This document shows positions 4,717 through 64,000 of a stretch of DNA of 64,000 nucleotides, piece by piece. The number at the start of each line of letters is the position of its first letter. Within the stretch, counting starts at the first letter, position 1. The DNA is from a bacterium (GTDB lineage: Bacteria > Patescibacteriota > Minisyncoccia > Phycocordibacterales > UBA12088). The DNA lies in the NCBI GenBank assembly GCA_003252295.1, contig QKEV01000011.1, positions 7,127 to 71,126 on the forward strand. Direction: 5' to 3'. The position numbers and the translations under genes were made by a program. The notes below the pieces were generated by a model that did no database searches, was not told the origin of the DNA, and was given only the letters and a program-made list of their open reading frames with translations.

Positions 4717-6618
4717 TTACTCGGTTTCTGCGTCTCGTACCTTCTCCTCGCCATCAGTATCATCTTTTTTATCATCTTTATTTTCCTTATCTTCTGTTGT
4801 TTCAGAAGAAGAAGCTTCATGTTTACTCACCGCTTCACCAATTTTCTGCATTGCAGTAGAAAGCTCATCTGAAGCTTTTCTGATATCATCTCTCACTGTC
4901 CCCTCCACTGCTTTTTTCAAAGCAGTAATCTTTTCTTCAACTTCAGTCTTTATTGAAGCGTCCACCTTGTCACCATAATCCTTGAGTGACTTCTCTGCGG
5001 TGTAGATAAGCTGCTCTGCTACATTCTTTGCTTCAATGAGTTCACGTTTTGTTTGGTCATCTTTCTCGTGTGACTCAGCATCATTCTTCATTTTATCTAT
5101 CTCTTCGTCTGAGAGACCGGAACTTGCCTCGATCTTGATTGATTGTTCCTTACCTGTCGCCTTGTCCTTTGCTGTAACATTCAAAATACCATTTGCATCC
5201 ACATCAAAGCTCACCTCGATCTGTGGCATGCCGCGAGGTGCAGGGGGAATGCTATCAAGAATGAAGCGTCCAAGTGACTTGTTGTCAGTCGCCATCGCAC
5301 GTTCTCCTTGTGTGATATGTATTTCCACCTGTGTCTGGTTATCAGCAGCAGTAGAGAATGTCTGACTACGTTGTGTTGGTATGGTTGTGTTTCGTTCAAT
5401 GAGTTTAGTAGAGACACCACCCATGGTCTCAATACCAAGCGAGAGTGGTATAACATCAAGCAAGAGAATATCTTTTACATCACCCTGTAGAATACCTGCC
5501 TGAATAGCAGCACCACTTGCAACCACTTCATCAGGATTGATACTCTTGTTTGGCTCCTTACCAAAGAGATCCTTCACTGCCTTCACAATAGCTGGCATAC
5601 GAGTCTGTCCTCCCACAAGGATAATCTCATCAATGTCACCTATACCAAATGGAGACGCTTCTACAGCACGCTTTGTAATAGTGATCGAACGTTCAATGTA
5701 CTCACTTGCGAGCTCTTCGAGTTTTGCACGAGTCAACGTAAGGAGAAGATGTTTTGGACCATCACTGTCTGAGGTAATGAACGGTATGTTTATCTCAGTG
5801 TCTGTTGTCGTTGAAAGCTCCATCTTTGCCTTCTCAGCTGCCTCATCGAGACGCTGCAGTGCAAGCGGGTCCTTCGTCACATCAATACCAGAATCTTTCT
5901 TGAACTCATCTGCTATCCAGCGCACAATCTTCTGGTCAATGTCACGACCTCCCATATGTGCATCACCATCGGTACTCTTCACCTCGATTACATCATCACC
6001 AACCTCAAGTACTGACACATCAAATGTACCACCTCCGAAGTCGAAGACTACTATTTGCTCATCTTTCTTTTTGTTGAAACCGTACGCAAGTGCTGCTGCA
6101 GTTGGCTCGTTGATAATACGCTTCACCTCAAGACCTGCGATCTTACCAGCATCCTTTGTTGCCTGACGTTGTGAGTCGTTGAAGTATGCAGGGACCGTAA
6201 TCACTGCCTCGGTAATCTCCTCACCAAGCTTTCGCTCTGCGTCTGCCTTGAGCTTCTGGAGAATCATTGCGCTAATCTCTTCCGGTCGGTACTGCTTATC
6301 ACCCATAGCAATGAGTACACCACCGGTGTCACCCTTCTCAACCTTGTATGGGACTATCTCCTTATCCTTCTGCACCGCGTCCTCTTCAAAGTTGTGACCA
6401 ATAAAACGCTTGATACCATAAATAGTGTTCTGTGGGTTCGTAACTGCTTGTCGTTTTGCAACAACACCTACAGCACGTTCCTTGTTCTTACTGATTGAAA
6501 CTACTGATGGAGTAGTACGATTACCCTCCTCATTTTCTATGATCTGTGGTTCACCACCTTCAACGTACGCCATTGCTGAATTTGTGGTTCCAAGATCTAT
6601 TCCTAGTATTTTTGACAT
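4717..6618 (-). CDS. dnaK: Molecular chaperone DnaK (Hsp70)
   Basis: [30 protein letters not shown], acidic C-terminal tail. 633 aa. Confidence 0.97.
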
Positions 6619-6673
6619 GATGGTTTAACTTAGATGTATAAATGTTCCGAAAGTTACTTTCGGGGGCTGAATG

Positions 6674-7258
6674 TTATGTTTTATCCTGTAGCTGCGCAAC
6701 AACAACTTTTGCTGGTCGCACAAGCTCACCATTAATAGTGTATCCCTGCTGAAAAACTTGCGCTACCGTGTGATCTTCTTTTTTCTTTTCTGTCGGTACG
6801 ATACTCATACACTCGTGTACATTTGGATCAAATGCCTCACCGGGAGCACCAAAGCGTTCTAAACCCTCACTCTTCAGTGCCTGATGAAACTGGCTCGCGA
6901 TTCGTTCTACTCCTTGTCGCCAGTTCTCATCGACGTCGTGCCAACTTTTTTCCTGCATTGCGGCTTCAAACGTATCGAGGGCTGGGAGCAGTTTTTCAAT
7001 AATAGACCCTTTGATACGTGATTCATTTCGCTCCCTATCTTCTGCAACTGTCTTACGAAAGTTCACGAGATCTGCCTTTGATCGTTGCCAACCCGCAAGG
7101 TTCTCATCTCGCTCATGCTGAGCCTCTCGTAACTCAGCTCTGAGGGCTTTTAGTTTATCCTTAAGGGCAGCATTAGTGACCTCTTCTGTTTCAAGTTCTA
7201 TCTCGTCACCAGTCTCAAAATCTATTGAAATCTCCTCATTTTCCGCGCCTTTTTTCAT
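6674..7258 (-). CDS. grpE: Nucleotide exchange factor GrpE
   Basis: Coiled-coil N-terminus and GrpE C-terminal beta domain. Sits directly upstream of dnaK in operon order grpE-dnaK-dnaJ. Confidence 0.9.
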   Translation of the reverse strand: MKKGAENEEISIDFETGDEIELETEEVTNAALKDKLKALRAELREAQHERDENLAGWQRSKADLVNFRKTVAEDRERNESRIKGSIIEKLLPALDTFEAAMQEKSWHDVDENWRQGVERIASQFHQALKSEGLERFGAPGEAFDPNVHECMSIVPTEKKKEDHTVAQVFQQGYTINGELVRPAKVVVAQLQDKT

Positions 7259-47505: not shown

Positions 47506-47527
47506 GCAACAAATCCATTCTCCATAG

Positions 47528-47556
47528 ACACTGCCCTACTGGGCAGTGTTTTTGTT
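47528..47556 (+). terminator. Intrinsic terminator
   Basis: ACACTGCCC tact GGGCAGTGT followed by TTTTTGTT. Confidence 0.6.
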
Positions 47557-47628
47557 GACTATTACCAGTAAACAAGTACGCTACTAAATAGAGGTCATAA
47601 TTATGATATTCAAACAGCACAGAAGAGG

Positions 47629-47859
47629 TTGCTTATGGAAACTCCTGAGGAAATAAATTATAAAAGGACACACAAGGAGCAGGGGTGTAGATGTTTTGAA
47701 TGTGCACGAATGTTTACGTTTTATCGAACCTGTTATATCCCTGTAGGAAATAGCCAAGTTAGGCCGGTTTGCCGCACCTGCAAAGGTGGTATTGTTGGTG
47801 ATATTATTGAAGTGCTGGCACAGATGTTACAAGTGACTGAAGAAACACTCATCCACTAA
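47629..47859 (+). CDS. Small Cys-rich protein (possible zinc ribbon)
   Basis: CRCFEC...C...C...CRTC. About 76 aa; followed by a GC-rich hairpin GAACCCCCT..AGGGGGTTC. Confidence 0.4.
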   Translation: MLMETPEEINYKRTHKEQGCRCFECARMFTFYRTCYIPVGNSQVRPVCRTCKGGIVGDIIEVLAQMLQVTEETLIH

Positions 47860-48103
47860 ACGTTCTACCGAACCCCCTCACAAAGGGGGTTCCAACTTGC
47901 ACTGTGAAAGAAAGTTGCAAATAGGTGCGTACAATACAACAGCATCCGAGGGTAGTGTAAAAATTTCACCATTAAAAAAATATGTCATGCATAGCGGATG
48001 CTCTATGGGCAAACACCACACATAACCAGTGTGGTGTTTTGCTTGTTATTTTGTAAAGCATAGGTAGGATGTATGCAGAATACAACACAAAAAGGAGGAA
48101 GGT

Positions 48104-48418
48104 ATGGAAAATAATACTGTGTACATTATTGAAGTTAATCAGGAAAAAAAAGGCGGCAGCATTGTGTTCAGTGTCACTCTATGTGGACAAAGAAAGTATT
48201 ATCAAATCACGGAAACAGAAACAGGAATGTATTCCTTTTGGGAAAATAATAGCAACCTTGTTGCAATTAAACTAATCGCAACAGGAATGGCTGACGTGGA
48301 TGCTGAACTCTTTACTCTCCTACACCCCCTACCATACAGCATTGATACGCCAAAAAACTTGCGGGAAATGATGATAGCAGCCAAGTACTGGAACCAGAGT
48401 GCATACCTGCACTGCTGA
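48104..48418 (+). CDS. Hypothetical protein (104 aa)
   Basis: ORF preceded by AAGGAGGAAGG. Confidence 0.45.
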   Translation: MENNTVYIIEVNQEKKGGSIVFSVTLCGQRKYYQITETETGMYSFWENNSNLVAIKLIATGMADVDAELFTLLHPLPYSIDTPKNLREMMIAAKYWNQSAYLHC

Positions 48419-48482
48419 CAAGTATAGTACTGCTATACAAAATGGGCACACATACATTGTGCCCATTACTGTTTCTAAATAT

Positions 48483-54983: not shown

Positions 54984-57536
54984 TTAATAGTGCTCACGCA
55001 TGTGTGGGTGCAGGTACAGCTTTACGAGCTCAAACCATACAACACTCACAACCGCTATACCCACAACAAGGAAGATATCTATAACCGGTAGTGCTACTAC
55101 ATGGAAGAGTTCAGCAAAGAACGGTACATAGAACACTACTCCGAGACAGACAAGTGCTGCTGTCGTCACCACGTAGAGTGTTTTGTTACCCGAAAAGAAT
55201 GAGGACACCACACTGCGCTCCCAGGACAAATTAGTGACAATGAGCATGAGGTTTGAAAGTACGAGTAATGAGAAAACAAAACTTCGTGCAAGTTCTTCAC
55301 TCCTGCCTGAAGTGATTGCATAGTGATAGGTAATGAAAGTTACCACAAGCACACCGAGACCCTGTATCACACTTAACGTCACTGCACGTAAGCTAAACAT
55401 GGAATGGTTGAGGTCACGTGGCTTACGACGCATGAGGTCACGTGCACCACGCTGAGACTCAAACACTGTTGAACATGCAGGGTCAATAATGAGCTCTAGA
55501 AACGCTATGTGGGCTGGCAGCAAGACTGCTGGCAGACCAAAAACAAGTGGTAGTACCGACATGCCTGCAATAGGTACATGTATTGCAATGATGTACCCCA
55601 TAGAACGTTTCAGGTTACCGTAGATGCGTCTTCCAAGTCGTACCGCTGCCACGATCGAAGAGAAATCATCATCCAAGAGTATAAGTGCAGATGCCTCACG
55701 TGCAACGTCGGTACCACGCTCACCCATCGCTATACCGATATGTGCCGCCTTGAGTGCAGGTGCATCATTCACGCCATCACCCGTCATTGCCACAATGTCA
55801 CCGTTTGCCTTCAAAGCGTTCACTATGAGCAGTTTTTGCTCAGGTAGCACACGGGCAAAAATGTTCACCGTTTTGATTCTCTCCTGCAACTCAGCCGGTG
55901 GAAGGTTTGCGAGATCCTCACCGGTAAGGTAGCTTTCAGTGTCACGTATACCTATCTGCTGCCCGATGTACTGTGCGGTACCTGGATAGTCGCCCGTGAT
56001 CATAATGACGCGCATCCCTGCCCCGTACGCTTCTTCTACTGCTCGCGGTGCTGTCTCACGAGGTGGGTCAATAAAACCAACGAGACCAATGTATGTGTAA
56101 GTAAACTCTTGTTGGTGCTCAGGTAGTGCTTCTGCGTCACAGGTTGCTTGTGCAACTGCTAGTACACGCAAGCCGGTTGATGACATGTGCTCAACGGTCT
56201 CCAGAATTACCCTTCGCTCCTCGTCAGGCAAGTGACACAAGTTTGCGACCGCCTCAGGGGCACCTTTGACCGCGACAGTGCAAGGACCACCATGCTCTGA
56301 GTCACTCCAAACACGCGTAACAGCAAGACACTCCGGTGTGATTGGATACTCTTTTACAAACTTGAAACGGTCAACAAGATGCTCATGGTGTTCAGACCTG
56401 CCTTCACACACCCTGCGAAGTTCTTTCTCCATTGCATCGTACGGCTCTTTTTGACTCGCGAGCACACTATATGAGAGGAGTTGCTGGTACTCCTCTGGGA
56501 TTTCTGCAAGTGCATCATTGCGTATCTCATATGAAGCATTTCCCAAGTACAAACGTGATAAACGCATGGAATTGTGGGTAAGGGTGCCAGTCTTGTCAGT
56601 GCAGAGCACTGTAGCAGCACCTAAGGTTTCAATAGCTGCTGAACGTCGAGTTAAAACGTGACGTTTCGATATGCGCCACGCACCAAGGGTGAGAAAAATA
56701 GCGAGCACGACAGGAAACTCTTCAGGCAAGAGCGCCATCGCGAGCGTGAGCCCTGAGAGGAAACTCTCGAGCAGGTTACCTGTCGCCAGAGTAGAGAGCA
56801 CAACAACCACGATACACAACACCACAGCTATCACTGCTATGGTTCTCACGACACGAGATGTCTCCTTATGGAGAAGCGTTTGCTCGGTAGTGATACTCCC
56901 CAAACTCTTACCAATCTTCCCTATCTCAGTATGCACTCCCGTTTTATCAACTCGTGCCACAGCATGTCCGGACACAATGAGGGTGCCTGAGTACACGAAG
57001 GGCAGGTCCTCACCTCCTGGTCGCACCTCTTCCACTTCCCCACTCAGGACTGTTTTGCGCACTGCTACTGACTCACCAGTAAGGAGTGATTCGTCTACGA
57101 GTAGGTTGTTAGTCTCAAGGATCGAAGCATCAGCAGGAACACGGTCACCCTCACGCAATATCATAATGTCACCCCGCACCACCTCACGTCCTGCTATACG
57201 TTTCTGAACGCCATCGCGTATGACGAGTGCACGAGGACTCGAAAGGTCACGTAATGCCTCGAGTGTCTTCTCGGTCTTGTGTTCCTGATAGACGGTAATA
57301 ATCACTACCACAAATACGGCGATGAGGAGCATGATGGCGTCTCCGAGTGACCCCATGAAGAGGTAAATCGTACCGCTCGCAATGAGCAAGAGAAGCATTG
57401 GCTCAGAGAGCACCTTGAGAAAGGTCATGAGACCATTCTGCTTCTTTTGTGATGGAAGTTCGTTGTATCCTTCGGTGCGAAGCAGTCGAGTTGCCTCCTC
57501 CGTGGTGAGTCCTGTGTATGTTTTCGGATTCGGCAT
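54984..57536 (-). CDS. Cation-transporting P-type ATPase (type II/III-like)
   Basis: CTDKTGTLT phosphorylation motif, TGES, MITGD, GDGVNDAPAL, about 10 TM helices. Confidence 0.9.
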   Translation of the reverse strand: MPNPKTYTGLTTEEATRLLRTEGYNELPSQKKQNGLMTFLKVLSEPMLLLLIASGTIYLFMGSLGDAIMLLIAVFVVVIITVYQEHKTEKTLEALRDLSSPRALVIRDGVQKRIAGREVVRGDIMILREGDRVPADASILETNNLLVDESLLTGESVAVRKTVLSGEVEEVRPGGEDLPFVYSGTLIVSGHAVARVDKTGVHTEIGKIGKSLGSITTEQTLLHKETSRVVRTIAVIAVVLCIVVVVLSTLATGNLLESFLSGLTLAMALLPEEFPVVLAIFLTLGAWRISKRHVLTRRSAAIETLGAATVLCTDKTGTLTHNSMRLSRLYLGNASYEIRNDALAEIPEEYQQLLSYSVLASQKEPYDAMEKELRRVCEGRSEHHEHLVDRFKFVKEYPITPECLAVTRVWSDSEHGGPCTVAVKGAPEAVANLCHLPDEERRVILETVEHMSSTGLRVLAVAQATCDAEALPEHQQEFTYTYIGLVGFIDPPRETAPRAVEEAYGAGMRVIMITGDYPGTAQYIGQQIGIRDTESYLTGEDLANLPPAELQERIKTVNIFARVLPEQKLLIVNALKANGDIVAMTGDGVNDAPALKAAHIGIAMGERGTDVAREASALILLDDDFSSIVAAVRLGRRIYGNLKRSMGYIIAIHVPIAGMSVLPLVFGLPAVLLPAHIAFLELIIDPACSTVFESQRGARDLMRRKPRDLNHSMFSLRAVTLSVIQGLGVLVVTFITYHYAITSGRSEELARSFVFSLLVLSNLMLIVTNLSWERSVVSSFFSGNKTLYVVTTAALVCLGVVFYVPFFAELFHVVALPVIDIFLVVGIAVVSVVWFELVKLYLHPHMREHY

Positions 57537-57618
57537 ATGGTCTGTGTATTATAAAAGAGTACGCTACTATCTTCTAGTGACTTTTTACATAACAAGCACT
57601 GTCTTTACACTACACTCT

Positions 57619-57894
57619 ATGGCATTTGCTATACTACTAATAATGAGTGTTGCAAAGATACAAACCGGTGTAGTTCATAAGGTGCCGCAAGACCTACGGG
57701 AAGTATTATTGGAAAATACTGATGTCTTAGAGCTATGGAACAACCTAACACCACTTGCCCGCAATGAATGGATCTGTTGGGTTACCATTGTGGTAAAGGA
57801 GGAGACGAGAGAAAAGCACCTCAAGCGACTCTGTGAGGATCTCCGCAAAGGCAAACACCGACCGTGCTGCTGGGCAGGGTGCCCTCATCGGTAA
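57619..57894 (+). CDS. YdeI/OmpD-associated family protein (91 aa)
   Basis: LTPLARNEWICWV...KKEETREKHLKR pattern. The long track ORF from 57382 would overlap the ATPase and was trimmed to the ATG at 57619. Confidence 0.55.
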   Translation: MAFAILLIMSVAKIQTGVVHKVPQDLREVLLENTDVLELWNNLTPLARNEWICWVTIVVKEETREKHLKRLCEDLRKGKHRPCCWAGCPHR

Positions 57895-57923
57895 AAAATA
57901 TAAAGTGTACTAAATTCACAACA

Positions 57924-58700
57924 TCACACACTCATGAGCACCTTTTGATGTTTCTTTGTAAAATCCCATATTTCATGTAGAAAGTCCTCAAAATGCTTAC
58001 CTGATCTTAGATGTTTTTTGTACATTTTTGTGTAATGGGTCACGGGTCGCTTCCCTTCAATGCGAATTTTTTGAAATTGAGTATATGTCCTCTGCTTATC
58101 TTTAAACAATGTTTTGAAGTATGGATGTTCATTGAGGATCACGTCAGTAATTATTTCACTGAGTCTCCACACCAAATGTGGCTCATCCAACTCCTCGTAC
58201 TTTGTTTCAGGAAAAACTTCCATCCATTTTTTGAAATATACAAAATGCAGTATTTCATGACACGTGATTTCCCTTACTCTTCCTGGATTAAAGTAACTCA
58301 CGTTGAATGTCCAGTTATGTAGCCAACGTGGGTACACAGGAACCATGCTCACATAAGCTTTAAGCGTTTTGCGATTACTAGGAAACTTCGTTTCAACATG
58401 TTCACTCAGAGCGGTAAGGAACTTCTTCTCTACTGATTGCCAACCTTTTATGTTCATCCTGAGAGCACTATCAAACTGCTTACTGTTTTGTTTACGATAC
58501 GTATTGGCGTACGCATGACAAATACGCATTCTTTTTTTATCATCAGTCACACCCTCAAGCGCGAGTTTAAGTTCAGGATGACATTGAAAAACAACTTCAG
58601 CCAAGTCGAAACCCACTTCTTGTGGCTCACAAAAATCACACAAAACCCTTGCTTCCTTAGCTACCGAAGGCAACACAAATTCTACTTTTGGTGTAAACAT
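57924..58700 (-). CDS. Hypothetical protein with HExxH motif (possible zinc hydrolase)
   Basis: CHEILHFVYF. Confidence 0.45.
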   Translation of the reverse strand: MFTPKVEFVLPSVAKEARVLCDFCEPQEVGFDLAEVVFQCHPELKLALEGVTDDKKRMRICHAYANTYRKQNSKQFDSALRMNIKGWQSVEKKFLTALSEHVETKFPSNRKTLKAYVSMVPVYPRWLHNWTFNVSYFNPGRVREITCHEILHFVYFKKWMEVFPETKYEELDEPHLVWRLSEIITDVILNEHPYFKTLFKDKQRTYTQFQKIRIEGKRPVTHYTKMYKKHLRSGKHFEDFLHEIWDFTKKHQKVLMSV

Positions 58701-58817
58701 AAAATATAGTATATCACTTAAAAGATTGGTTATTTTTAAAGTGTATATTTTTTAATAACAAGAGCCGCACTGTACTTGCCAGTGCGGCCCAAACATTGAA
58801 CATGTATTAGCTTCTTT

Positions 58818-59093
58818 TTATTGCTTTTTTATTCCATCAGGAAATTTGTTGATAAATTCTACAATCATTGCCTCAACAACACAGACGACTACTTCGTCTA
58901 CACGTACTCCGTGTGTAAATGATAAAGGAACATCCTTAAGTGCATCTGAAATAAAACTTCCGGTCCTTGCGGTATCTCCTCCACCAATGGTCGGAAAAAT
59001 CTCGCCAACCTCTGCAGTGATCTTTGCAATCAAATCTTGAATATCGATCGTTACAGCATTTTTATCATCCATATCACCCATGATATCCTCCAA
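58818..59093 (-). CDS. Hypothetical protein (91 aa) downstream of the ClpX-ZBD gene
   Basis: ORF in an apparent two-gene operon. Confidence 0.4.
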   Translation of the reverse strand: MEDIMGDMDDKNAVTIDIQDLIAKITAEVGEIFPTIGGGDTARTGSFISDALKDVPLSFTHGVRVDEVVVCVVEAMIVEFINKFPDGIKKQ

Positions 59094-59111
59094 TTAATCA
59101 ATAAAATGAGT

Positions 59112-59660
59112 TTACAAAAGTGCACGTTGCCTGGCTTGTAAGGCAAGTAATTTCTCAGATAACTGAGCGCACGTTTCCTTCTTTTCTTGAAGATCAGCGA
59201 TTGCTTGCTCGTGCTCAGTAATCTGAACACATACTGGTGAGGTCTCTGTTAGAGTAGCACCACCCTGTATTGGATACAGCTCATGCTCTATCGCCTCAAT
59301 GCTTGCACGTACAGCAGTTGGAAGTATCTTGACCAATGTAGCGTTCAAGTCTCCAATAAATTCCTGTTCTGACACATCTTCTCTATCATTATTCCTAAGA
59401 ATAAAATCACGAAGATAGTTGAGAAAATTAAAAACACCACTATCAGCGATCATTTGGAGATCACCTGAACCTACTGCAAGGTATCCCAACGTATGCAAAA
59501 GTTCTTCAATATTGTCCTCGTACACAATTCGTACACCGAGAACAATACATTCATTACAAATGTGTACTTCTGGACCTGCAACCAGCTTTTTAACCTCGTC
59601 CTCATTTTTACTACAAAAGCTACACTTTGCTTTTGGGTCTGTATCGCCACTTATGCACAT
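59112..59660 (-). CDS. Stand-alone ClpX-type C4 zinc-binding-domain protein with a C-terminal coiled coil
   Basis: [29 protein letters not shown] closely matches the ClpX N-domain [27 protein letters not shown]. No AAA+ module (182 aa). Confidence 0.65.
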
Positions 59661-59869
59661 TACTCAACCTCCCTGATTAGAATGGATTATTAATTATAAG
59701 CATTACAAGCATCTACCTAATTTCACAGAATGTACTATTTTCTATATTTGTCAACGTTCACTGTGAAAGGGTTCCCCTTTCACAATAAGTATTTCTTTCT
59801 ACGAGTAGATTTAATCTTTTTATCTTGCTACTATATTTTTGTTAGTTCTTTCACATTTTCTCCAGTGAC

Positions 59870-60262
59870 ATGCTCGCAAATTACTGTTGGCAGGTGAACT
59901 GGAGAAAAAACATGGCACATCTTCGGGCAAAGTATTCATCTTGGTCTCCCGATACAAAGGGGGTAAAACAAATTGTTTGGTTTATCGTTTACACTGGCAA
60001 GGATGCTGATCGCTTCGGACCACATCCCAGAGCACATGAAGACGATCAAGCTCTTTTCAAAAAAGACCCTCAAGAATGGGCACACTCCATTCTTAAGAGA
60101 AATGAGCTGCCTTGCAATGCTCGTTTTGCCTTTTTAAACGGACCATTAGGTCCTTCCATTAAGGTAGTGTTTTCAGGAAAAACAACAGAGGGTGAAGACT
60201 ATCAATTACGGAGAAAGATTCTAAACACACTTCGCGAATTTATCTTTGTGTACCATAAGTGA
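59870..60262 (+). CDS. Hypothetical protein
   Basis: ORF; likely start at the internal Met MAHLRAKY. Confidence 0.4.
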   Translation: MLANYCWQVNWRKNMAHLRAKYSSWSPDTKGVKQIVWFIVYTGKDADRFGPHPRAHEDDQALFKKDPQEWAHSILKRNELPCNARFAFLNGPLGPSIKVVFSGKTTEGEDYQLRRKILNTLREFIFVYHK

Positions 60263-60384
60263 GTACCTCAAACCTCACGAAAAATTGCACCTCTGCGTCA
60301 TCAAGCACCGGTGCAATTTTATTTCACAGGATTGTTCATCACATAGTTAGATAAAATTGGAATCAATTGATCCCTGTTACATGA

Positions 60385-61068
60385 CTACTTAATCAACCGA
60401 TCTGTATACCCAAGAGAAACAAGATATTCATACGCTTCCCATACCTCATCAGGAATATCTTGTTCAATTTGAAATCCTTTTGCTGGATATTCTTTAATAC
60501 GCTGCAAATCTCCAATAAGTGCATGAATCCAGTGTTCATTATGACTATTACTTGCATCCTCATACTTTTCAATAGGGATAGGTGGTGATGTAACTATTAG
60601 TTCAATATTTGGCCACCACACTTTACCTGTCGCATAGGTACGACGTTCCATATACGGCTTTTGAACAGCTATTACTGTATTTGGTTCAATATTTTTTTCC
60701 CGCAAAAGCTGTATTGAAAATTCATAGTTTTGACCGGTATTTTGTGATCTGTTTTCAATCAAAATTGCCTCTTCAGGAACACCCATCTTACGTGCAATAT
60801 CCGCAAACACTTCTGCCTCTGTGGAACCGACAAATTGTTCTCTTCCTGGCTTGCTGTTGTGTATACTTCCAGATCCGGCAAAGATGATAATTGGTGCAAG
60901 ACCATCCAAGAACAACTGTGCAGCATGCTCTGCGACACGAGTATCACGACATCCAAGCACGAATATTGCATCTGCTTTTTTCAGTGTATGTTCCATATGC
61001 ATATAGTCCCATATGAGGTTTAGTGCTTTTTCCTTGGTCATTTCCATTTTTTTACTATTTTTCTCCAT
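60385..61068 (-). CDS. DUF218 (YdcF/ElyC/SanA-like) family protein
   Basis: AIFVLGCRD...IIFAGSG pattern. Confidence 0.6.
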   Translation of the reverse strand: MEKNSKKMEMTKEKALNLIWDYMHMEHTLKKADAIFVLGCRDTRVAEHAAQLFLDGLAPIIIFAGSGSIHNSKPGREQFVGSTEAEVFADIARKMGVPEEAILIENRSQNTGQNYEFSIQLLREKNIEPNTVIAVQKPYMERRTYATGKVWWPNIELIVTSPPIPIEKYEDASNSHNEHWIHALIGDLQRIKEYPAKGFQIEQDIPDEVWEAYEYLVSLGYTDRLIK

Positions 61069-61085
61069 ACAAAAATACTACCATG

Positions 61086-61343
61086 AACATACTATGGTAT
61101 GTTCATCGAACCCGGGTTTCGACCGTGAGAGGTGAGAACGTGCCAAAGCACGTTCGTAAAACCTTGTGAGCTATCTTTTTGAACTTGTAAAAAAAAGTAG
61201 CCACAAGGTGTACTGCACCTGTAAGGGGCGGTGAGCAGAGCGAGCACCTTATGGGTGCAGTCCTCTCAGGTCAAACCCGATTCCCTTCCCGTGCGTAGCA
61301 CCTCAAAAACAAAACACCAGTCTTGTACTGGTGTTTTGTTTTT
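61086..61343 (+). ncRNA. Candidate structured non-coding RNA ending in an intrinsic terminator; type undetermined
   Basis: A 370-nt gap free of ORFs on both strands. Several hairpins: ATGAACATAC/GTATGTTCAT, GAACGTGCcaaaGCACGTTC, long-range CCTTGTG/CACAAGG, nested GGTG...CACC helices. It ends in terminator 61306..61343 (AAAACACCAGT cttgt ACTGGTGTTTT plus T-run). tmRNA, RNase P and SRP signature motifs were not found by eye. Confidence 0.3.
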
Positions 61344-61442
61344 GATTTGTGACCCTAGTTAGACAGAATTGGAATCAAATTCTAATTTACTTAACTTTTA
61401 CAATATAAACTATCACATTCATTAAGTGATATAATTTATAGT

Positions 61443-62204
61443 ATGCGAAACAAAAAACTTCATAGGTTGTTTATTGATGAATCTGGTCAACCGCAATATA
61501 GTCATTCCGATAAAAATTTTACATATTGTGGAATAATAGCAAACCCAATTCAATCTGAGTATCTTAAAATTGTTGCTGATCAAATAAAATTTAAATATTG
61601 GAATCGCACCAGCACCGTCTTTCATTCAGTAGATATCGGAAAGAAAAGAAATGATTTTAGTATTTTAAATGATCAAGATACTTATAGTGACTTTAAAACT
61701 GACTTATTTAAATTTTTAAATAACAATAGTTACAGATGTATTATAGTTTCAATTAACAAAGAAAAAGCTAGAACACTTGGATGGAGTGAATTAAAAGTAC
61801 GAAATATTGCAACAGACACTCTCATTGAACTATATATAAAATTTTTACATGAAAAATGTTTCTTGGGTCAAATAATTGCTGAATCATCTAGTTCGGCAGA
61901 TATCAACTTATACAAAAGATATACTTCTTACTTGTCGCAAGGTTGTCCTTCAATGAACTTAAGTCATATAGATTTAAAAAAACAATTAACATCAATTACA
62001 TTCGTTAGTAAAAATAATCATGATATTGAGGCACAGATTGCAGACATATTGGTGTATGCTGGAGTAAAAAAAATCTTAAGTGACGAAGGTTTTTTTAGTC
62101 TTTTGCCTGAAAGTTATGAAGGAAAACTTATAAATATATTAAATACGAAACTCATTAATTTCAAAGATGGTACAAATAGTTTTATTCGATTACCTTTACC
62201 ATAA
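61443..62204 (+). CDS. DUF3800-like protein (N-terminal LFIDESG motif)
   Basis: RLFIDESGQ near the N-terminus. Lies in the A+T-rich segment. Confidence 0.45.
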   Translation: MRNKKLHRLFIDESGQPQYSHSDKNFTYCGIIANPIQSEYLKIVADQIKFKYWNRTSTVFHSVDIGKKRNDFSILNDQDTYSDFKTDLFKFLNNNSYRCIIVSINKEKARTLGWSELKVRNIATDTLIELYIKFLHEKCFLGQIIAESSSSADINLYKRYTSYLSQGCPSMNLSHIDLKKQLTSITFVSKNNHDIEAQIADILVYAGVKKILSDEGFFSLLPESYEGKLINILNTKLINFKDGTNSFIRLPLP

Positions 62205-62369
62205 ACGAAGAAAAAGCGGACTTGCCGCTTTTTCAAAAGAGAGTTTGTAGCTTACGCTTACTTGCTCTCTTATTGGTAATAATGCTATCAAAGATATTAA
62301 CATTTGTCAAGGTTATCCACAGGCACACCTTGACAGGTTTTATACTCAAAAAAAAACCTTTAGAGTAAC

Positions 62370-62918
62370 TCAAACTTGTTTTAGACTTGTTTCTTTTGAT
62401 CTTTTTACAGATTCTCTGTAATCCCAAGGTAGTATAATTCCATATTCTTTTGCAATCCAATCTTGTGACCTAGCGTACAAACGTGCAAGATCTGACTCCT
62501 TACTAGCTTCACAAAATAATAAATACAAAGTTGTTGCGACTATAGTTGAAAAAATTATTGTTATTATAAAATAAATTATTAAGTGTCTTTCTTGATGAAG
62601 TGTTGGAAATATCCCTGTAAGTATTGAATACATAAATACAATAATTGAAATTGTGATCGCCATCCAAGCATGATACGCTTGGGCTTCTTGTTTGTGCATA
62701 GAGGAATTTATTGATAAATAATTATAAATTGAATCAAACATCGCAGGACTTATGCTTCTGTTCTGTATTGAAGAAAGTGTCTTTGGACTTATTCCAACGT
62801 AAATTATTGCTTCTCTGGATATTTCATCAAGACGAGGAATTGTCTTATATTTTTTTTCTAGCTTTTTATAATATTTATCTTCTTCTTTTGAAGCTGTTTT
62901 TTTATCGAAGAACCACAT
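62370..62918 (-). CDS. Protein with a soluble N-domain and two C-terminal TM helices
   Basis: Hydrophobic segments ITISIIVFMYSILTGIF and IIYFIITIIFSTIVATTLYLLF. 25 nt downstream of the 321-aa gene. Confidence 0.45.
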   Translation of the reverse strand: MWFFDKKTASKEEDKYYKKLEKKYKTIPRLDEISREAIIYVGISPKTLSSIQNRSISPAMFDSIYNYLSINSSMHKQEAQAYHAWMAITISIIVFMYSILTGIFPTLHQERHLIIYFIITIIFSTIVATTLYLLFCEASKESDLARLYARSQDWIAKEYGIILPWDYRESVKRSKETSLKQV

Positions 62919-62943
62919 AATTGTAATATTTTGTAATTAATTT

Positions 62944-63909
62944 TTATTTTTTAAGTTTTATATTTGCAACTGACAAAGTTTGTGCTGATAATACAAACAC
63001 TGGATCATTTTTCAATTTGTCCATGAGTTCAAACATGACAATTTTCTGCTCCTCTCCATTGCTCAACAACATTTTTACTACTCCATGTAACATGGAAATT
63101 ATTGAATCTCCTTCCATAAAATTTTTACCAAGAGGTCTTTTGATATTTGAAAACTGTTTTGTTGCTTCAGTGATACCTAATTCTTTTAACTCAGTATCAA
63201 GAGTGTTACGAACCTTAATTTTATTTTTTAGTAACTGATTAACAAAACCGGATTCCCATCTTTCAACCATTTCACTCAAGATATACCAACCCCAAGGCTC
63301 AAACTCAATTTCTTTTATCTTTCCGTCGTTACTTAAATAAATATGTCTTGTAAGTTGTGCTAAATTTCTTCCAATGTCTGCTTTTCCATTTGGATTTACA
63401 AGAACTTTTAACATTCCAAAAGCATACCCTAGTAGCCACAATGGTTTTTGATTGTCGCATTGTTTTTTATGCAACTCTTCAAGTTCTTTAAAATCTGATT
63501 CTTGCATAATCTTTTTTTTCTCTAAGTCCTCCCTGATCAATAGCGTAGTGTTTTCAATCCGATCATCTGTGTCGTCCATATCAAACATTGTGTCATCAAA
63601 GAGATCAAAAAGATTGTCTTTTAACAACTGTTTAAAATATTTGCCACTATTTTCCTTTTTTAAATGTAGCCCTGACGCATATCTTGAAAATGCTGTTTCA
63701 AGTGTTTTTTGCAGTATACGCTTTTCATTAGCTGAACAAATATTTTGCGCCTTTTTCGTACATCTGTAGTATCGGTCTGATAGATGCAACTTATGTCCAC
63801 TCTCAAGGAATACTAATGTTCCCTTTTTGAAATAGGGAATTTTTTTTAGCTTGAATGCAGTTTTATTTTTCATACTTCCACATAAAACATCGCTTGAATA
63901 CGTGACCAA
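62944..63909 (-). CDS. Hypothetical protein (321 aa) in the A+T-rich segment
   Basis: ORF, no motif recognised. Confidence 0.45.
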   Translation of the reverse strand: MVTYSSDVLCGSMKNKTAFKLKKIPYFKKGTLVFLESGHKLHLSDRYYRCTKKAQNICSANEKRILQKTLETAFSRYASGLHLKKENSGKYFKQLLKDNLFDLFDDTMFDMDDTDDRIENTTLLIREDLEKKKIMQESDFKELEELHKKQCDNQKPLWLLGYAFGMLKVLVNPNGKADIGRNLAQLTRHIYLSNDGKIKEIEFEPWGWYILSEMVERWESGFVNQLLKNKIKVRNTLDTELKELGITEATKQFSNIKRPLGKNFMEGDSIISMLHGVVKMLLSNGEEQKIVMFELMDKLKNDPVFVLSAQTLSVANIKLKK

Positions 63910-64000
63910 ATAAGAAAAGCACCTATAAGCGACAAACTCATAATGTACTTTCTATATTAGTTGTCAATTTTCAAGGCGCAGGCGGACTCCTGCTCTCGCC

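Follow-up and report, generated by a model that had tools for sequence, protein, structure and literature searches.

A probable cargo arm of a small integrative island in the A+T-rich end of a 64-kb stretch of bacterial DNA

Here we report the analysis of a stretch of 64,000 nucleotides (nt) of contig QKEV01000011.1 (assembly GCA_003252295.1), hereafter the window, whose last segment, positions 61344–64000, is strongly A+T-rich. It is probably the accessory arm, bearing the cargo, of a small integrating mobile island whose core extends across the window end. The core would comprise a protein of 309 or 321 amino acids (aa), here called p321, an origin- or operator-like hairpin, and a rolling-circle HUH replication initiator (Rep); by analogy with every relative examined, it would also include a small protein and a large serine recombinase (LSR) by which the island is inserted in or next to a tRNA gene. 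p321 may be a maintenance protein of the island, similar to a stand-alone version of the zinc-ribbon and coiled-coil module of serine integrases. It could bind island DNA (the divergent promoter and hairpin, or the attachment (att) sites) or the coiled-coil of the integrase, and through this binding it would govern whether the island stays integrated or instead excises or replicates. p321 would be co-transcribed with downstream cargo, here TM182, an orphan membrane protein with two helices, and convergent to both lies a second cargo gene, with a putative promoter of its own, encoding a DUF3800 protein, a predicted nuclease of the RNase-H fold. In the simplest reading, a terminator-ended element of 240 nt directly upstream of this gene would be the non-coding RNA (ncRNA) partner of the nuclease. 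The cargo probably serves defence or conflict between mobile elements. The features of the segment and its borders are as follows:

61107–61302, + strand: hyper-structured, GC-rich non-coding element; a long closing stem around a junction with three hairpins
61303–61343, + strand: symmetric (bidirectional) intrinsic-terminator hairpin of 19 pairs (−25 kcal/mol for each strand) with A- and U-tracts
61427–61435, + strand: extended −10 promoter-like motif (TGaTATAAT), read from the sequence, 7 nt before the ATG of the DUF3800 gene
61443–62204, + strand: DUF3800-family protein of 253 aa (PF12686), cargo gene
62210–62234, either strand: bidirectional terminator hairpin (10-bp stem with 5 G-C pairs) between the convergent DUF3800 gene and p321–TM182 unit
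62370–62918, − strand: TM182, orphan protein of 182 aa, 25 nt downstream of p321, cargo gene
62944–63873 (309 aa, ATG at 63873) or 62944–63909 (321 aa, TTG at 63909), − strand: p321/p309, core protein of the island
63940–63967, − strand: promoter-like site of the p321–TM182 unit (TTGACA, 16 nt, CATTAT), a consensus match only (10 of 12 positions), abutting the hairpin that follows
63975 to about 64081 (L002 6169–6275), + strand: conserved extended hairpin of about 107 nt between p321 and Rep
64123–64896, outside the window, divergent from p321: rolling-circle HUH Rep (PF23343, E = 5.7e-22; PHROG 3419, E = 2.3e-32)

The segment differs from the rest of the window in both composition and codon usage. 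Its G + C content is 30.6%, against 42.8% in positions 1–61343, and is the lowest among 1227 sliding windows of equal length (mean 42.7%, standard deviation 3.1%). The value falls sharply from about 0.40 to 0.27–0.33 directly after the 19-bp hairpin at 61303–61343 and is back to about 40% at the Rep gene beyond the window end. The three genes of the segment have a G + C content at third codon positions (GC3) of 0.23, compared with 0.39 ± 0.07 in 20 long open reading frames (ORFs) elsewhere in the window, and contain 176 AAA, AAT and ATT codons per 1000, compared with 75 in the same ORFs. The initial annotation of this DNA had noted, by eye, an A+T-rich segment with a codon shift to AAA, AAT and ATT behind a terminator at about 61343, and had listed three ORFs, including one of 321 aa that is followed 25 nt on by one of 182 aa; all of these observations are borne out. 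The cargo genes have a GC3 of about 0.19 (DUF3800, 0.186; TM182, 0.198) and the core genes p321 and Rep one of about 0.28, which fits a separate acquisition of the cargo. An independent assembly, a Logan contig of 7.1 kb (SRR7216773), spans positions 57807–64906 and adds 906 bases past the window end. Every junction between 57807 and 64906 is reproduced in this contig, so the segment is no assembly chimera. All three proteins of the segment, including the DUF3800 protein, are singleton clusters at 90% identity.

In the Rep, whose gene follows the window end, the motifs ITLTYRD, VHFHALF and YLSKYMAK are present and with them both the HUH signature and the catalytic tyrosine. The hairpin between p321 and Rep is GC-rich, has a folding z-score of −7.9 as single-stranded DNA (ssDNA), and abuts the −35 box of the promoter-like site of p321. 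Its architecture is shared by the closest related locus, L003, with compensatory changes in both the outer and the inner stems, and it looks like an origin or an operator. A metagenome scan with an alignment of the Rep returned distant Reps only (about 30% identity, on contigs of 1–3 kb). Scans of the viral collection yielded no relative of p321, Rep or the DUF3800 protein. This null result bears on the alternative that the segment is an integrated ssDNA virus, that is, a microvirus- or inovirus-like prophage, an idea that draws on the matches of the Rep to PF23343 (ORF2/G2P type) and to PHROG 3419 ('rolling circle DNA replication initiation'). Capsid, coat or morphogenesis genes occur in no relative, including those with a complete core such as L113, and other islands of the family use Rep_O or HTH_36 initiators, which leaves a viral origin only a slim chance.

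The relatives of p321 show what the core of the island looks like. A word-indexed search found a single homolog (L003, 46% identity), and an exhaustive HMMER search a family of 71 representatives at 50% identity, nearly all of them 300–330 aa long. Ten gene neighbourhoods were compared (the window, L003, L084, L086, L087, L088, L110, L111, L112/L113 and L114). All have one layout, in which the family gene comes first in its transcription unit and a divergent core operon encodes a small protein, a replication initiator and an LSR. L003 has the same divergent layout as the window; its Rep shares 71% identity with that of the window, and a 70-aa gene and an LSR come next. The layout is also the same in L084, L086, L088, L111 and L113. 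The LSR is present in six of the six loci with enough upstream sequence. The type of initiator varies, with a rolling-circle Rep in the window, L003, L111 and L113, Rep_O in L086, and HTH_36 in L084 and L088. The 3' end of the integrase gene abuts or overlaps tRNA-Gln (L084, L088) or tRNA-Ser (L086), and the islands are flanked by ordinary host genes (FtsX, IF-2, RuvB, Obg). The order of a complete core can be read from L113: host genes, LSR, Rep, a 72-aa gene, p328 and then cargo. The constant layout, the integrases beside tRNA genes and the host flanks together identify small tRNA-targeting integrative islands. The horizontal acquisition that had been proposed for the segment is supported in this way and can be extended: a Rep and an origin-like hairpin adjoin it, and the homologs of p321 always occur in the same island layout.

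The small core protein (55–72 aa) is conserved among four of the islands, with the motif ...AEEyLnSLANLYL..., and is encoded by the first gene of the leftward core operon:

L084, 9707–9874: small core protein
L086, 5942–6109: small core protein
L088, 2071–2241: small core protein
L113, 4311–4529: small core protein

It shows weak matches to DUF2164 and is possibly an excisionase (Xis) or recombination directionality factor (RDF), or a Cro-like regulator. A different conserved small protein is shared by L111 (134 aa) and L114 (136 aa). In L087, an LSR occupies a second position at the far (cargo) end, convergent with the cargo (5879–7252, − strand), which could reflect tandem islands or some other arrangement; circularity of the L087 contig was not detectable.

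The recurrence of this architecture also bears on the question of whether the A+T-rich segment could simply be native, fast-evolving host DNA with no mobile-element significance. The adjacent region at 57.5–61.2 kb, which is likewise somewhat GC-poor and non-syntenic, and the heterogeneity of genomes of the candidate phyla radiation (CPR) speak for such an origin. It is nonetheless barely credible, since the segment is an extreme compositional outlier, the Rep and the origin-like hairpin adjoin it, and at least ten unrelated contigs have the island architecture, with integrases beside tRNAs.

The genes downstream of the family gene differ in every neighbourhood and show no pairwise similarity. 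Judged by family matches, this slot is often filled by defence genes in the sister islands:

Window: TM182 and DUF3800
L084: SoFic (E = 1e-98) and an HD protein
L086: NERD
L087: restriction–modification system of the BsaWI type
L088: PDC-S06/LmuB-like (Lamassu-like) ATPase and a methylase
L110: methylase of the EcoRI type and a type II restriction endonuclease (E = 6.5e-78)
L111: AbiV-like HEPN protein (sub-threshold)
L114: DUF2726 and an AAA_15 ATPase

TM182 consists of a lysine-rich soluble N-terminal part of 80 aa, two hydrophobic helices at about residues 84–106 and 112–136, and a tail of 46 aa, as judged by hydropathy. The two transmembrane (TM) helices had been placed at the C-terminus in the initial annotation; their number is right, and their position is central to C-proximal, with the tail following. 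Residues 30–53 give the impression of a helix-turn-helix, by eye only. No homolog of TM182 was found among 5.8 billion clusters, and there was no convincing family match; the only PADLOC match, to ThsA-macro (E = 0.0095) over the TM region, was judged to be noise. TM182 shows no similarity to a 178-aa membrane protein of L084 or to other small membrane proteins in the same position, and its single-sequence AlphaFold2 model is unusable (predicted local distance difference test (pLDDT) of 54). TM182 is probably co-transcribed with p321.

In the initial annotation, p321 and TM182 had been paired as soluble sensor and small membrane effector. Fully stated, this alternative takes the two as an abortive-infection or defence module and DUF3800 as a separate defence gene. 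It has some appeal: the two genes share a strand and only 25 nt, without a terminator, separate them; defence genes occupy the cargo slots of sister islands; and in several islands the family gene is immediately followed by a gene for an unrelated small membrane protein, such as the two-TM protein of 178 aa in L084. However, TM182 is without any homolog, the gene downstream of the family gene is different in all ten neighbourhoods, what is conserved alongside p321 is the trio of small gene, replication initiator and serine recombinase, and the pairing has no match in PADLOC. As the gene after p321 is never co-conserved with it, the pairing of sensor and membrane effector fails, and a two-gene module is very improbable; p321 belongs to the core of the island, and TM182 to its cargo. 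The more general suggestion of a defence-like function is plausible in view of the defence genes in the cargo slots of sister islands and of the DUF3800 literature, though not for the pair itself. The family searches that had been proposed gave a mixed outcome as well, with a match of the DUF3800 protein to PF12686 and no PADLOC support for p321, TM182 or DUF3800.

The start of p321 at the ATG at 63873 (309 aa) is favoured by the family alignment and by the NCBI/JGI gene call. The family is unannotated, and the protein of the window matches no Pfam, PHROG or PADLOC family. The alignment reveals an N-terminal signature (F-x4-L-x4-S-G-H-x-L...Y-Y-R-C-x7-C-x3-E...LE) in which H27 and C38 are invariant and C46 is near-invariant. 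A model obtained with AlphaFold2 and an alignment of 44 sequences (pLDDT 83.9, predicted TM-score 0.79) consists of a small beta-ribbon, an antiparallel helical hairpin (residues 73–118 and 125–159), a beta-hairpin (175–191) and a helical C-terminal part. Several observations point from this fold to serine integrases. Among the 44 family members, four match PF13408 (weakly, best E = 0.0088) and two match PHROG 95, 'integrase' (best E = 8e-7). Comparison with the integrases of the islands themselves by hhalign (E = 2.6e-4, probability 42%) places residues 13–88 of p321 onto residues 268–345 of the integrase, which form the ribbon and the start of the coiled-coil. The top match of the model in a Foldseek search of the PDB is 4KIS, the C-terminal domain of an LSR bound to DNA. 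The three best matches in BFVD (best E = 4.9e-4, probability 1.0) are phage proteins of 491–638 aa, which is the size of large serine integrases, and one of them is named Integrase. The catalytic resolvase domain (PF00239) and the recombinase domain (PF07508) are found neither in p321 nor in any of the 44 members, whose sequences begin with the ribbon. Taken together, these signals, which are independent of one another and individually weak, make p321 look like the zinc-ribbon and coiled-coil module of an LSR, and not like a recombinase.

In LSRs, the ribbon and coiled-coil module reads the att half-sites, the coiled-coils choose the synapsing pairs, and RDFs act at this module (PMC3783163, PMC5499577, PMC11722253). 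From the position of its gene beside the integrase operon and the hairpin of the divergent promoter, we infer that p321 may be a DNA-binding regulator of the island or a modulator of the integrase. Its first 190 residues may correspond to the zinc beta-ribbon with inserted coiled-coil of large serine recombinases such as those of phiC31, Bxb1, LI and SPbeta. In contrast to these enzymes, p321 has no catalytic resolvase and recombinase domains, other residues stand in place of its first CxxC knuckle (S-x-H...C-x7-C), a helical domain is added at the C-terminus, and the similarity scores are marginal. The p321 gene adjoins the integrase operon, as RDF genes often do; p321 itself resembles none of the known RDFs gp3, gp47 and SprB. 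Two serine recombinases of sister islands are short, namely those of L084 (8162–9244, 360 aa), which ends just after the zinc ribbon, and L111 (315–1484, 389 aa), for which only resolvase and recombinase domains were recorded. Their lengths imply that the coiled-coil is missing in both, and it is conceivable that a protein of the p321 family complements them in trans.

The DUF3800 gene had been recognised by its N-terminal IDESG motif, and this assignment is confirmed by a match to PF12686 above threshold (E = 7.5e-8; 33.6 bits, gathering cutoff 21; profile positions 2–145 of 149). The protein has the motif LFIDESG with D12 and E13 (DESG at residue 12) and a QxxD motif (QIAD) at residues 198–201; DE and QxxD motifs characterize the DUF3800 family (PMC7736814). 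By sequence, it is a genuine member of a predicted nuclease family, for which the literature gives an RNase-H fold (PMC7736814, PMC10910872, PMC12669027). It matches no PADLOC, PHROG or NCBIfam model; plasmid and phage collections contain only remote relatives (23–34% identity), and a search of PDB sequences was uninformative. DUF3800 proteins act as effectors of type VII retrons (PMC7736814) and are accessory proteins of CRISPR V-A2 and VI-F loci (PMC10910872, PMC12669027). Unlike in these systems, there is no reverse transcriptase or CRISPR array near the DUF3800 gene of the window. Its neighbour on the other side of the structured element is a DUF218 gene on the − strand, which has a −10-like sequence (TAGTAT) 6–7 nt before its ATG (61066–61081). 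The starts of both genes are without a Shine-Dalgarno sequence. Such −10-like motifs nearly touching the start codons, together with the lack of Shine-Dalgarno sequences, suggest leaderless or near-leaderless mRNAs for both genes.

The structured element sits between the divergent genes for DUF218 (−) and DUF3800 (+), in a spacer of 374 nt of which the initial annotation had noted the terminator alone. Together with its terminator (about 240 nt) it has a minimum free energy of −117.7 kcal/mol, compared with −64.5 ± 4.7 kcal/mol in shuffled sequences (z = −11.3), and it is the most over-structured 200-nt window in the 64.9 kb examined, followed by the Rep-proximal hairpin. The + strand is slightly favoured (4 G.U pairs versus 1; −89.1 versus −84.8 kcal/mol). 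As DUF218 and DUF3800 both read away from the hairpin at 61303–61343, the latter most plausibly terminates a + strand transcript of the element itself, and ending such a transcript is its most likely role. We rejected the possibility that the element, read from the − strand, is a riboswitch-like leader of DUF218: the 19-bp terminator would fall at its 5' end, and relatives have nothing comparable ahead of DUF218.

DUF3800 genes are accompanied by eleven structured RNA motifs that are unrelated to one another and whose function is unexplained (PMC5737381); the motifs occur on either side and on either strand of the gene, and several are terminator-ended (PMC5737381). The arrangement in the window is similar in that a stand-alone DUF3800 gene with DE and QxxD motifs is located about 100 nt from a terminator-ended, structured non-coding element. 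The element differs in that it matches none of the DUF3800 motifs of Rfam, nor drum or skipping-rope. In a search of Rfam 15, including DUF3800-I to -XI, drum and skipping-rope, the body of the element (61107–61302) had no match, and even at E ≤ 10 the weak matches of a 401-nt query were all to the terminator hairpin. No second copy was found in 1.36 Mb of loci. The element at 61107–61343 is a candidate ncRNA and could be a new partner RNA of DUF3800.

Alternatively, the element could act at the DNA level, as a single-strand origin, a boundary or an att-adjacent structure, with its position next to DUF3800 being a coincidence. The island encodes an HUH rolling-circle Rep, the two most structured regions of the 64.9 kb lie on either side of the A+T-rich genes, both with a preference for the + strand, which codes for Rep, the stems are nearly all Watson-Crick, and unrelated hyper-structured elements occur in sister islands that have no DUF3800. 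On the other hand, several sister islands with such elements have Rep_O or HTH_36 initiators and no rolling-circle Rep, one sister element is a recognised candidate RNA (LOOT), a separate transcript best accounts for a strong terminator placed between divergent genes, and many unrelated terminator-ended structured RNAs are known beside DUF3800 genes (PMC5737381). We favour the RNA reading, at about even chances, over a DNA-level structure, for which the chances are rather poor; the remainder falls to something else.

The hyper-structured spacers of the sister islands have z-scores of −8.8 (L111), −9.8 (L087) and −5.5 (L086). Those of L111 (5905–6150) and L087 (1360–1745, about 330 nt of nested hairpin) lie outside Rfam, and the elements of L111, L087 and the window are unrelated in sequence to one another. 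Comparison of the structured elements between islands revealed relatedness in a single case, that of the window and L003 with their Rep-proximal hairpins. L086 carries a LOOT RNA (RF03000; 7350–7468, + strand; 85.8 bits, gathering score 46.4) between the p321 homolog and the NERD-domain gene, directly upstream of the latter, in an island with a serine integrase; the locus thus provides a genomic context for LOOT, an RNA motif of unknown function.

Several points weigh against the proposed interpretation of the segment. The integrase, the tRNA target and the att sites of the island in the window were not seen in the sequence, which reaches position 64906, and the insertion is an inference. Across the whole 64-kb window there is neither a tRNA nor a tmRNA gene, and no Rfam family reaches its gathering score; no displaced tRNA fragment was found at the left junction of the segment, nor were tRNA-derived direct repeats that would delimit the islands. 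The sequence link between p321 and serine integrases is weak (hhalign probability 42%), p321 of the window has no Pfam or PHROG match, a profile search of PDB sequences with the p321 family returned no integrase, the first CxxC knuckle is missing, and the Foldseek TM-scores are about 0.22, low values that are expected for a flexible coiled-coil and are still weak. Neither cargo protein, TM182 or DUF3800, matches any PADLOC model convincingly. The partner-RNA reading is weakened by the hyper-structured intergenic elements of sister islands without DUF3800, and no homolog of the element was found in the 1.36 Mb of loci from which covariation could be assessed. Finally, the assignment of the host to the CPR depends on DUF218 alone. 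This gene is 64–74% identical to genes in metagenome-assembled genomes of Ca. Kaiserbacteria, Paceibacterota and Saccharibacteria, from which the host is probably a CPR bacterium; there is no synteny with the ten nearest genomes, and only DUF218 is common to them.

The islands belong to a known kind, that of integrative defence-carrying islands. Like PLE of Vibrio cholerae (PMC6002521), they are small chromosomal islands with a large serine recombinase, and they share with PLE, the phage-inducible chromosomal islands (PICIs) and the P4-like satellites an own replication initiator and a variable anti-phage slot flanked by conserved core genes. They differ from these satellites in that no genes for packaging hijack or capsid remodelling were seen, in their apparently much smaller size (a core of about 3.5 kb and a few kb of cargo), in their hosts, which appear to be CPR bacteria, with no helper phage or induction known, and in the p321 family, which has no counterpart there. 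Actinomycete integrative and conjugative elements (AICEs) of the pSAM2 type are also integrative, target tRNA genes and have a rolling-circle Rep, and their excision is coupled to replication. The Rep of the window shows weak similarity to RepSA (PF20199, NF041486), with scores far below the family cutoffs. The recombinase of the present islands is a serine recombinase and not a tyrosine integrase with Xis, and they have no FtsK-like Tra and no Kor or Pra regulators. No description of this island family was found in the literature searched, and the combination of serine integrase and initiator, integrase-module-like protein, defence slot and structured elements is apparently undescribed.

A more far-reaching proposal would be that the p321 family is a new LSR accessory factor made from the ribbon and coiled-coil module of the integrase itself, a decoy or partner in trans of the coiled-coil or of the att half-sites that sets the directionality or timing of excision, that it defines an unrecognised group of defence-carrying islands, probably of CPR bacteria, and that the element in the window belongs to a twelfth class of DUF3800 RNA and nuclease, mobilised here as cargo of an island; as a whole, we regard this as unlikely. 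If p321 does modulate integration or excision, it would be of interest both for the biology of mobile elements and for genome engineering with serine integrases. The role of the RNAs associated with DUF3800 has been open since 2017, and the element in the window may add a new case, here in a mobile setting. Little has been charted of the mobile islands and defence systems of CPR/Patescibacteria, and a recurrent compact type of island would provide an anchor for mining their genomes for new defence genes.

Two further regions of the window were noted. The region at 57500–61250, directly before the structured element, encodes a protein of 258 aa, one of 84 aa, one of 182 aa that consists mostly of a ClpX-type zinc finger, one of 130 aa, and DUF218. 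It is moderately GC-poor (0.37–0.43) and without synteny in the nearest genomes, and could represent an accessory region of greater age or belong to a larger island. Positions 47506–48482 form a stretch of about 1 kb without any ORF of at least 105 aa; its local folding z-score is −1.1, and at its start lies an ordinary terminator hairpin.

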